Source: Blastopirellula marina
GTDB lineage: Bacteria; Planctomycetota; Planctomycetia; Pirellulales; Pirellulaceae
Direction of reading: 5' to 3'
NCBI RefSeq assembly: GCF_002967765.1
Contig: NZ_PUHY01000005.1
Location: 688,774-752,773, forward strand
DNA: 64,000 nt
How positions within the stretch are numbered: position 1 is the stretch's first letter; each line of letters opens with the position of its first letter. Shown here piece by piece: positions 58,923-60,692 of this stretch. Both the position numbers and the translations under genes were made by a program. The notes under the pieces were generated by a model that saw only the letters and a program-made list of their open reading frames with translations, was not told the DNA's origin and did no database searches.

Positions 58923-60692
58923 TCACCAGGTAAGGATCTGAATATGACTAAGCGGCACCCCGGTTGTTTCGCTGACTCGGTGGGCGACCTCGGTTATTCG
59001 CTCGGCGGAAAGGTTTTGACCGCGGGTGTCCAGAACGATCGATTGTTGTTTGATGTTTGCATCGGTATCGATCTTTCGCGCCTTGATTTGTTGATAGAGA
59101 GAGGACTTCTTCGATTTCGATAGCAATCGATTTAATCCTTTGTCCGTTCGCAAATCGTAGTTCTTCACTTCGATGTAGGCAGTTGTGGTTCGAACATCGG
59201 GCACGGTGCTGTCCTTTACTCGGTTTTCACGTCGATGGCCACCCTTATAAGCAACTTCAGCTTGGCCTCCGACGCCACCATAGAAATAGCTCACTTCGAC
59301 TTCCGACTGCTCTCCGCGGACGAAGCCAGCGCCGGGGCGACGCCCTTCGCGGATGTTTTCGACATAGCGGCGAAATCGTAACGCGCGGCGGTGCCCCTTG
59401 GGCGTATTAGGCTGTTCGGCGGCTTTTTTCAGCCAGAAGTCGATCAACTCGTCGCGGTGCTCATTCAAGCTGAAGATCACTGGCTCGCCTTGAGGCTGCC
59501 TGCCTGATGGAGGTTTGCTACCTCCACCTTGGCCACTTCCTCCTCCTCCACCACCACTCGCCGGTGGTTTTCCGTTCGATCCCCCACCACTCATTGCCGA
59601 GCCTGAAGTAGGGGCGAGACTAGCGGACGTTGTCGACGCAGGAGGCGATGAACGCTGCGTCATGCCCGTTGGCGCAGTTGGGGCGGAAGTCGTTGGGGCC
59701 GTTCTTACGGCGGCCGATTGGCCTGATAGATCTCCCGCGGTCGACTTTCCCCCTTTTACGCGCCCTAACGCACCCGCCCCGGCTTGCATGCCGGCGGTTG
59801 CCAGATCACCCTGCCGCAAGCTTTCGACGACACGCGTGGTGGTGATCGCATCGTCGATCAGGCTCAGCACTTTGCCTTGGGGAAGGACGGTCAGCACGCG
59901 CTCAGCATCCTCGCGAGCGCCCTCCCAGGTTCCTTTGGCCAGCCCTTCGCCAACGTTGCGGACATCGAGAAAGCCTAACGGAATGCCCGCGGCCACGTTC
60001 ATTGCTAGCACCGAAGCATCAAGGACCGAAGCTCCGAGCGCCGCAAGAAGAACATGTTCCCCCCCGGAACCAACATAATCTTCCAAGTCTCGCTTGAGAC
60101 TGGTTGCCCCTTCCGTGCGCGACTTCAGTCCTTCTTGCAAGCCGCGTTCGATCCGCCTCGCGACGCCATCCTCCGTCGGCTGAGGTTTCTCTTGGTGCGG
60201 CTTGTTGTGGGTGGCTTTGTCTTGGGGAATTGGAGGTGGTGGCGTGGGATCAGGGGTTGGCTCGGGCGTCTCGGTCGCAGGGTGTTCACGTTCGGGGGCG
60301 GTCGACTTGGTGGGACTTCCCGTCCCTGTCTGTTCTGGAATGGGAACCTTGACGACTCGAGTTCCCTGCGGGACATAGACGAACTCGGCATCATTGTAAG
60401 CGTTGATTCCGTTAAGAAGTCGCCAATGAACGCGTGCCGCTTCCTCGTAAGAGTCCGATAGGAACGCGCCGCGTCCCACCACACAGGACTGATCGGTGTC
60501 GTCGACGCTAAGCATCACGACCTTTGTGTAGAATTGATCGCCGAAGGGAACAGTTTGGACGATGAGCTTCCGATTGGCCTCGCCCGGTCCGATGTCGGAA
60601 TTGAACTTGGCGGTCGAGAAGACCGATTCCGAAATATCGTCATGCATCCGCAGGACGCCGGTCGAAACATCCCCATCCGGTGGCACGATCAA
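58923..60692 (-). CDS. multidomain protein with Pro/Thr- and Gly/Ser-rich linkers and a C-terminal PD-(D/E)xK nuclease-like domain
   Basis: The C-terminal 170 aa contain GEQSEVEVSYFYGG...VPDVRTTTAYIEVKNYD, i.e. PD-x9-EVK. Two low-complexity linkers (PTPDPTPPPPIP and GGGGGGSGQGGGS) separate three globular segments. Confidence 0.6.
   Translation of the reverse strand: MIVPPDGDVSTGVLRMHDDISESVFSTAKFNSDIGPGEANRKLIVQTVPFGDQFYTKVVMLSVDDTDQSCVVGRGAFLSDSYEEAARVHWRLLNGINAYNDAEFVYVPQGTRVVKVPIPEQTGTGSPTKSTAPEREHPATETPEPTPDPTPPPPIPQDKATHNKPHQEKPQPTEDGVARRIERGLQEGLKSRTEGATSLKRDLEDYVGSGGEHVLLAALGASVLDASVLAMNVAAGIPLGFLDVRNVGEGLAKGTWEGAREDAERVLTVLPQGKVLSLIDDAITTTRVVESLRQGDLATAGMQAGAGALGRVKGGKSTAGDLSGQSAAVRTAPTTSAPTAPTGMTQRSSPPASTTSASLAPTSGSAMSGGGSNGKPPASGGGGGGSGQGGGSKPPSGRQPQGEPVIFSLNEHRDELIDFWLKKAAEQPNTPKGHRRALRFRRYVENIREGRRPGAGFVRGEQSEVEVSYFYGGVGGQAEVAYKGGHRRENRVKDSTVPDVRTTTAYIEVKNYDLRTDKGLNRLLSKSKKSSLYQQIKARKIDTDANIKQQSIVLDTRGQNLSAERITEVAHRVSETTGVPLSHIQILTW

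Follow-up and report, generated by a model that had tools for sequence, protein, structure and literature searches.

We analyzed a 64,000-nucleotide stretch of the Blastopirellula marina genome (positions 688,774 to 752,773 of contig NZ_PUHY01000005.1, assembly GCF_002967765.1; 'the window' below) and describe here a minus-strand gene close to one of its ends, the last gene of a three-gene operon. The gene probably encodes a modular toxin, in which a C-terminal domain of the Tox-REase-10 type acts as a metal-dependent nuclease. The gene and the landmarks of that domain are the following:

58923–60692, minus strand: putative toxin gene, 589 amino acids from the TTG start at 60692, stop codon (58923–58925) included.
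59343–59486, minus strand: two-helix N-terminal extension of the domain (residues 403–450), consisting of a strand and two helices, with conserved L416, W420 and Y443.
58926–59342, minus strand: predicted PD-(D/E)xK nuclease core of the Tox-REase-10 type (residues 451–589).
59301–59303, minus strand: E464 of the QSE motif in the first core helix (model helix 59–70), predicted to be metal-binding or catalytic.
59196–59201, minus strand: P498-D499, the 'PD' element, with codons read from the sequence.
59157–59171, minus strand: E508-V-K510-N-Y512, the 'ExKNY' element (model strand 103–108).
59076–59090, minus strand: Q535 to R539, in the helix after the ExK strand (model helix 130–140).
59016–59030, minus strand: D555-T-R-G-Q559, the 'DxRG(Q)' element.

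The original prediction had placed a PD-(D/E)xK nuclease-like domain at the C-terminus of this protein on the basis of a motif given as VPDV-x9-EVK. The motif is present, but its two halves are separated by seven residues rather than nine (V497-P-D-V500, x7, E508-V-K510). We examined its conservation across 114 aligned homologous domains. The motif residues are nearly invariant: P498 is found in 110 of 112 domains and D499 in 95 of 112, while E508 is present in 112 and K510 in all of the 114, followed by N511 (99/114) and Y512 (87/114). Upstream of the motif, R452 (94/106), S463 (94/107) and E464 (101/107) are retained, and downstream of it Q535 (111/114), R539 (113/114), Q550 (113/114), D555 (114/114), R557 and G558 (112/114 each) and Q559 (106/114). 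Conservation of the motif is thus far beyond chance. The window protein matches the consensus at all of the conserved positions that we tabulated, and its predicted catalytic residues are intact.

An AlphaFold2 model of the C-terminal domain, generated from a 34-sequence alignment, was returned with a mean predicted local distance difference test score (pLDDT) of 94.5 and a predicted template modelling score (pTM) of 0.90. The extension is modeled as a short strand (domain residues 3–6) and two helices (residues 8–23 and 29–47). It is followed by the helix that carries E464, a beta hairpin, a strand starting from P498-D499, the strand bearing E508-x-K510, the helices of Q535 and R539, a strand that spans Q550 to D555, a further helix and a final strand. 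In the model this core is the canonical alpha-beta-beta-beta-alpha-beta fold of the PD-(D/E)xK superfamily. E464, D499 and E508-x-K510 (85–100% kept among the homologues) sit on the elements expected for that superfamily, namely the first helix, the start of the second strand and the third strand, and the predicted nuclease-like domain was in this respect borne out. Neither of the two outcomes named in advance as fatal to it, a model lacking the PD-(D/E)xK core or motif residues that vary among homologues, was obtained.

Structural comparison of the model gave as its top match the DNase CdiA-CT of E. coli EC869 (PDB 4g6u), with 119 residues aligned, a score of 8.7 and 14% sequence identity. 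Further matches were XisH (2okf, 8.0), the Upx restriction endonuclease (9wuf, 7.8), a Yersinia CdiA-CT (4zqu, 7.7) and AF1548 (1y88, 7.7), followed at lower scores by other restriction-fold nucleases (NgoMIV, the Burkholderia CdiA-CT tRNases, Can2, the Tox-REase-5 protein TseT, NucS, FokI and BglII). A Foldseek search against the PDB, from which a restriction endonuclease-like match had been expected, returned nothing at E ≤ 0.001, the best sensible match being the nuclease domain of Hef/XPF (E = 0.012); the restriction-fold core is seen in the AlphaFold2 model itself. When the PDB was searched by sequence, using the single domain or two profiles, only spurious matches came back. Scans of the three operon proteins against Pfam, NCBIfam, PADLOC and PHROGs yielded just two unannotated PHROGs families, over the nuclease core (E = 4e-4 and 9e-3), and the Pfam family CdiA_C gave sub-threshold matches in 2 of 34 family members (E of about 0.003).

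The distribution of the domain points to a polymorphic toxin. A word-index search with the full-length protein returned a single match, a 98% identical counterpart (P0001) found on 7 public Logan contigs, the linkers having swamped the candidates; the C-terminal domain alone gave homologues. With residues 403–589 as the query, an exhaustive HMMER search identified 116 cluster representatives (50% clustering) at E ≤ 1e-3, 37 of them at E ≤ 1e-10. In most homologues the domain ends no more than six residues from the C-terminus of the protein. Twenty-eight of the 57 stronger matches carry an eCIS_core domain, and other carriers include LXG, PAAR, PT-TG, MafB, T7SS_signal, WXG100 and DUF637, as well as PT-VENN/CdiA fragments annotated as 'filamentous hemagglutinin' and PT-HINT. 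The same domain is also present in an uncultured phage, on an LXG-type 'Type VII secretion protein' (Foldseek E = 7e-11). The carriers represent at least nine types, with N-terminal parts that are mutually unrelated. Because one C-terminal domain is found on so many unrelated export carriers, the pattern is that of a polymorphic toxin cassette.

The family itself is not new, having been computationally defined in 2012. Tox-REase-10, as listed by Zhang et al. 2012 (Table 1, PMC3482391), has a restriction endonuclease fold and the signature E, Q, [DE], ExKNY, R, DxRG; its carriers belong to the type II, type V and type VII secretion systems (the last with WXG and LXG domains) and to proteins with FilH repeats, its immunity families are Imm54 and Imm70, and its hosts at that time were beta-, gamma- and epsilon-proteobacteria, firmicutes, fusobacteria and spirochaetes. 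The window protein reproduces this signature one for one (Q462/E464, D499, E508-V-K-N-Y512, R539 and D555-T-R-G558). An Imm70 gene directly follows one homologue, the PT-TG toxin P0133 of a lactococcus-like bacterium. Judged by signature, carriers and immunity partner, the domain fits Tox-REase-10. Pfam contains models for Tox-REase-2, -3, -5, -7 and -9 but is not known to have one for Tox-REase-10, which would explain the empty annotation of the window gene.

The window protein and its relatives nevertheless depart from the 2012 description in several respects. Planctomycetes are not listed there as hosts, nor are extracellular contractile injection system (eCIS, or Photorhabdus virulence cassette), PAAR and MafB carriers. 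The window protein and 43 relatives bear the two-helix extension. In homologues the domain is the C-terminal cassette of type V and type VII secretion toxins, but the window protein itself lacks those carriers, and no Imm54 or Imm70 gene adjoins its own.

The domain also occurs in a different setting in Chitinophaga flava and related Bacteroidota (contig L005, 5001–5885; contig L009, 4001–4903), where standalone proteins of about 300 amino acids span the whole extended Tox-REase-10 domain. These are encoded in a conserved operon composed of genes for proteins of about 425 and 645 amino acids, an aminotransferase-like gene, the 300-amino-acid gene and an Amidohydro_2 gene, with a sigma-54 activator adjoining; neither a carrier nor an immunity gene is obvious.

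The two-helix extension is strongly tied to eCIS proteins: eCIS_core is present in 27 of 44 proteins that have the extension versus 3 of 69 that lack it (Fisher p = 1.7e-11). The extension marks an eCIS-linked subfamily comprising the window protein and its 43 relatives. P0002, which at 44% identity is the closest relative from outside the species of the window organism, belongs with P0007 and P0015 to a group of homologues whose genes occupy one slot in eCIS loci, between an AAA ATPase gene and the genes for Pvc16_N, sheath and tube proteins (positions 6001–8868 of contig L006, positions 3277–4500 of contig L013 and the contig of P0015). Neither P0007 nor P0015 has a detectable eCIS_core domain, and since both hold the slot all the same, the conserved feature may be the position in the locus rather than that domain. 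Three proteins of the family (P0004, P0014 and P0025) have glutamine in place of the glutamate of the first helix (QSQ or QTQ), and these copies may have attenuated or altered activity.

eCIS_core is the domain formerly named DUF4157. Proteins with this domain carry C-terminal toxins behind long linkers, immunity genes are absent for many eCIS toxins, and the role of DUF4157 was unknown as of that report (Geller et al. 2021, PMC8213781). The window and contig L001, which carries the same operon in a second strain, encode no members of the sheath, tube, baseplate, AAA or Pvc16 families, and we found no second toxin cassette elsewhere in the window.

The putative toxin gene had been described in the original prediction as the last member of a tightly overlapping cluster, and the gene arrangement agrees with that description. 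The other two members of the operon, and the interval that follows it, are:

60689–61717, minus strand: middle operon gene, 342 amino acids from the ATG at 61717, with gene calls in contigs L001–L003.
61707–64000, minus strand: first operon gene, 967 amino acids at full length in contig L001; its C-terminal 764 codons lie inside the window and the rest beyond the edge.
58747–58922, no strand: gap of 176 bp before the convergent gene, with no gene called in 4 assemblies.

The operon order, taken from contig L001, is the 967-amino-acid gene, the 342-amino-acid gene and finally the putative toxin gene, with a convergent gene downstream. The first two genes overlap by 11 nucleotides, and the TTG start of the last overlaps the stop codon of the 342-amino-acid gene by 4 nucleotides (TTGA). 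Public gene calls use an alternative GTG start at 60686, which gives a protein of 587 amino acids. Two entries in the list of open reading frames (ORFs) correspond to the partner genes: one of 461 amino acids (60689–62074, minus strand) is an over-extended form of the 342-amino-acid gene, and one of 748 amino acids (61707–63953, minus strand) is the in-window part of the 967-amino-acid gene.

We measured selection on these genes as synonymous versus nonsynonymous codon differences between two strains, that of the window and that of contig L001. The differences number 43 versus 13 in the putative toxin gene, 28 versus 2 in the 342-amino-acid gene and 21 versus 2 in the in-window part of the 967-amino-acid gene. 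Because synonymous differences far outnumber nonsynonymous ones, we conclude that all three ORFs are real genes under selection. The two partner proteins have no usable family in Pfam, NCBIfam, PADLOC or PHROGs. The 342-amino-acid protein had no homologue in any search that we made, and the 967-amino-acid protein had no relatives in the genome_contigs, metagenome_contigs or plasmids collections and no match among GTDB species representatives. The toxin candidate likewise had no match in the plasmids collection, and the PADLOC models gave zero families for all three operon proteins at E ≤ 1.

The roughly 400 residues that precede the nuclease domain divide into two modules and two linkers:

60333–60692, minus strand: N-terminal module (residues 1–120), predicted to be beta-rich with one helix, with no signal peptide and no homologues.
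60165–60332, minus strand: linker 1 (residues 121–176), rich in Pro, Thr and Glu.
59742–60164, minus strand: middle module (residues 177–317), predicted to be all-helical, with a hydrophobic stretch at about residues 213–245.
59487–59741, minus strand: linker 2 (residues 318–402), rich in Gly, Ser, Ala, Pro and Thr.

The flexible Pro/Thr and Gly/Ser linkers proposed earlier are confirmed by composition: linker 1 has 15 Pro, 10 Thr and 6 Glu among its 56 residues and no predicted secondary structure, and Gly, Ser, Ala, Pro and Thr make up 80% of the 85 residues of linker 2. The accompanying claim of two upstream globular domains draws weak support, from a low-confidence model and from selection ratios by segment. 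A single-sequence AlphaFold prediction of residues 1–345 (pLDDT 42.6) was too poor for a fold search; it contains strands at residues 41–79 and a helix at 82–98, forming a beta-rich unit with one helix at about 26–98, and an all-helical unit at 174–314. The ratios of synonymous to nonsynonymous differences are 9:4 in the N-terminal module, 5:3 in linker 1, 13:2 in the middle module, 4:3 in linker 2 and 12:1 in the C-terminal domain. The domain segments are under stronger purifying selection than the linkers, a pattern that fits three folded modules with two linkers between them that tolerate change. The 19-residue Kyte-Doolittle maximum of the protein is a borderline hydrophobic value (1.78, at residue 213), and the middle module is possibly a membrane-active or carrier domain.

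Residues 1–400 have no family in Pfam, NCBIfam, PADLOC or PHROGs. Local phmmer and blastp comparisons revealed no similarity of the N-terminal and middle modules to 213 family members or to neighbouring ORFs. A word-index search with residues 1–121 joined to 177–317 returned nothing, a weak negative in that it missed even the 98% identical P0001. Two homologues, P0007 and P0022, have a matching layout, in which a low-complexity linker connects a hydrophobic helical region to the toxin domain, at undetectable sequence similarity. The gene for P0022 (624 amino acids; contig L011, 2028–8421) is preceded by that of an unannotated 1209-amino-acid protein with an N-terminus that is carboxypeptidase-regulatory-like in appearance, and a ParE-like toxin gene and an 80-amino-acid ORF lie downstream of it.

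A small immunity ORF had been anticipated immediately downstream of the gene (58700–58920). An ORF of 64 amino acids does exist there (58719–58913). We rejected it as an immunity gene on its selection pattern (2 synonymous versus 5 nonsynonymous codon differences between the strains), its overlap with the end of the convergent gene and its absence from the gene calls of public assemblies; by these signs it is very unlikely to be coding. A single-sequence search for an Imm70-like product among all ORFs of the window found none, and Pfam gave no Imm54 or Imm70 hit in the genes next to the putative toxin gene.

The convergent gene (55183–58746, plus strand) encodes a protein of 1187 amino acids with ELWxxDGT repeats, whose C-terminal part is dockerin/EF-hand-like. 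The window and L001 strains differ in this gene by 41 synonymous and 33 nonsynonymous codons. Its rate of change is far above that of the adjacent toxin operon, which suggests a surface protein under diversifying selection. Beyond it (53294–54983, plus strand) are an unannotated 350-amino-acid gene with weak WD40/beta-propeller matches and a 173-amino-acid gene, both kept in the related strain; as immunity candidates, these two have no supporting evidence.

The protein can be compared with several characterized or described toxins. Like CdiA-CT of E. coli EC869 (PDB 4G6U; CdiA_C, PF18451), it ends in a predicted PD-(D/E)xK-type nuclease; unlike that toxin, with which profiles detect no sequence relationship, it has neither CdiB/CdiA two-partner delivery nor a cognate CdiI. 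It resembles eCIS-associated toxins (PMC8213781) in that its closest domain relatives end eCIS_core proteins encoded in eCIS loci, in its long low-complexity linkers and in its missing immunity gene, which is often missing in that group as well; it differs from them in lacking eCIS_core and in the absence of eCIS genes from the 64-kb window and 10 kb beyond. The Pfam Tox-REase models match none of 113 family members, and the signature of Tox-REase-5 (TseT, PDB 7DYM and 9OZ0), namely Y, FDG and EAK, differs from that of the window family. PoNe toxins are paired with PoNi (DUF1910/1911) immunity proteins. The BaCT DNase toxin domain is about 300 amino acids long and nearly confined to Bacteroidetes. 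The PT1 and PT7 DNase toxins (Nachmias et al.) were excluded, being His-dependent and of a novel fold.

In the mechanism that we infer, E464, D499 and E508 would act as ligands for one or two divalent cations, and K510 would activate or position the attacking water; R452, R539, Q550, D555, R557 and Q559 probably shape substrate binding. The enzyme would then cleave nucleic acid in a target cell, with DNA somewhat more probable than tRNA as the substrate, given that a DNase heads the structural matches and that the active site departs nowhere from the classical pattern. The N-terminal 400 residues (the beta-rich module, Pro/Thr linker, hydrophobic helical module and Gly/Ser linker) would act as the carrier, and the co-translated 967- and 342-amino-acid proteins could deliver, load or restrain the toxin as carrier, chaperone or inhibitor. 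Since none of the three operon proteins has a signal peptide, delivery would be non-classical. Release on lysis is one possible route; another, suggested by the link of the toxin's relatives to eCIS, is loading into a contractile injection particle whose genes lie elsewhere in the genome. The missing adjacent immunity gene would be in line with reports on many eCIS-associated toxins.

A number of results weigh against this interpretation. No cognate immunity gene was found downstream, an uncommon situation for an antibacterial nuclease. The sequences of the three operon proteins show no evident signal peptide, and Pfam, NCBIfam and PHROGs identify no known secretion or trafficking domain in the toxin candidate. 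The protein gave no Pfam match to eCIS_core, for which a custom hidden Markov model was also negative in all frames of the window and of contig L001, and genes for eCIS, type VI or other secretion systems are absent from the 59 kb to one side of the gene and the 10 kb to the other. The domain is internal in about 14 eCIS_core proteins, positioned directly after eCIS_core and followed by 200–850 residues with no Pfam match (examples are P0004, P0006, P0009, P0010, P0014, P0018, P0019, P0029, P0031 and P0032), and the fixed position of three homologues in eCIS loci leaves room for a role other than that of a free toxin. Two structurally related CdiA-CTs (4g6v and 5j4a) are tRNases, which leaves the substrate open to doubt. 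Finally, the literature that we searched contains no biochemical assay of any Tox-REase-10 member and names the family only in PMC3482391.

The internal copies, some of them with Gln for the first-helix Glu, and the slot shared by P0002, P0007 and P0015 would be explained if the domain of the eCIS-linked subfamily were not a freely acting toxin but a conserved accessory part of the protein in the eCIS_core position, serving for instance to assemble particles or handle cargo; the window gene would then be a displaced remnant of an eCIS locus. Against this stand the same invariant residues on the terminal cassettes of LXG, PAAR, PT-TG, MafB and CdiA toxins, one of them followed by Imm70; the window copy also keeps every catalytic residue under strong purifying selection, in a window that contains no other eCIS remnants. 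We regard this as the least probable of the explanations considered. A toxin of the same fold that cuts tRNA or rRNA, in the manner of the CdiA-CT toxins of Burkholderia pseudomallei, is unlikely, though less so. In its favour, the family-specific invariant residues R452, R539, Q550, D555, R557 and Q559 fall outside the classical motif and could form a distinct substrate pocket; against it, the full E...PD...ExK...Q signature of a metal site is retained.

The original prediction named both a toxin and a defence effector as candidates. An intracellular anti-phage or abortive-infection system, in which the 967- and 342-amino-acid proteins sense infection and the 589-amino-acid nuclease degrades DNA in the producing cell, would accommodate the tight operon, the lack of an immunity gene, the lack of signal peptides in all three proteins and the lack of a trafficking domain. 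No component matches a PADLOC model, however, the domain family is found in export contexts (LXG, PAAR, CdiA, MafB and eCIS), and with two putative sensors that have no homologues, no conserved system can be demonstrated; we consider such a system improbable. A polymorphic toxin is favoured over a defence effector because the same domain is C-terminal on eCIS_core, LXG, PAAR, PT-TG, MafB, PT-VENN/CdiA and PT-HINT carriers. It is quite unlikely that the 967- and 342-amino-acid proteins together with residues 1–400 of the toxin make up a carrier or loading module of a kind not yet described, with which a planctomycete could use an eCIS-type nuclease cassette while dispensing with DUF4157 and an immunity protein; none of the three parts has a detectable homologue, and all are under strong purifying selection. 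Such a module might make the toxin the cargo of a particle encoded elsewhere, or it might provide a self-contained route in which the 342- or 967-amino-acid protein doubles as a non-canonical inhibitor.

Elsewhere in the window, gene families include the planctomycete-specific PSCyt, PSD, DUF1559 and DUF1552, in keeping with a host in the Pirellulaceae. A class-3 (Firmicute-type) fructose-1,6-bisphosphatase is encoded at 17874–19841 on the minus strand; it shares 83–86% identity with its counterparts in Rhodopirellula, Bremerella, Roseimaritima and Stieleria and has no close match among GTDB species representatives.

With no Pfam or NCBIfam model for Tox-REase-10, automatic annotation has left the window gene and more than 100 relatives as 'hypothetical'. 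For the family, our analysis adds a high-confidence structural model and a map of predicted catalytic residues, and it widens the known range to hosts among the Planctomycetota and Bacteroidota and to eCIS_core, PAAR and MafB carriers. Also new are the extended two-helix subfamily that is closely tied to extracellular contractile injection systems, and the unusual context, an orphan carrier accompanied by two partner genes that are orphans too, with no immunity gene found. That context raises the question of how the producer handles a toxin with no known export signal or immunity gene. The window gene can now be annotated as a predicted nuclease toxin, with D499, E508 and K510 as candidate knock-out sites.

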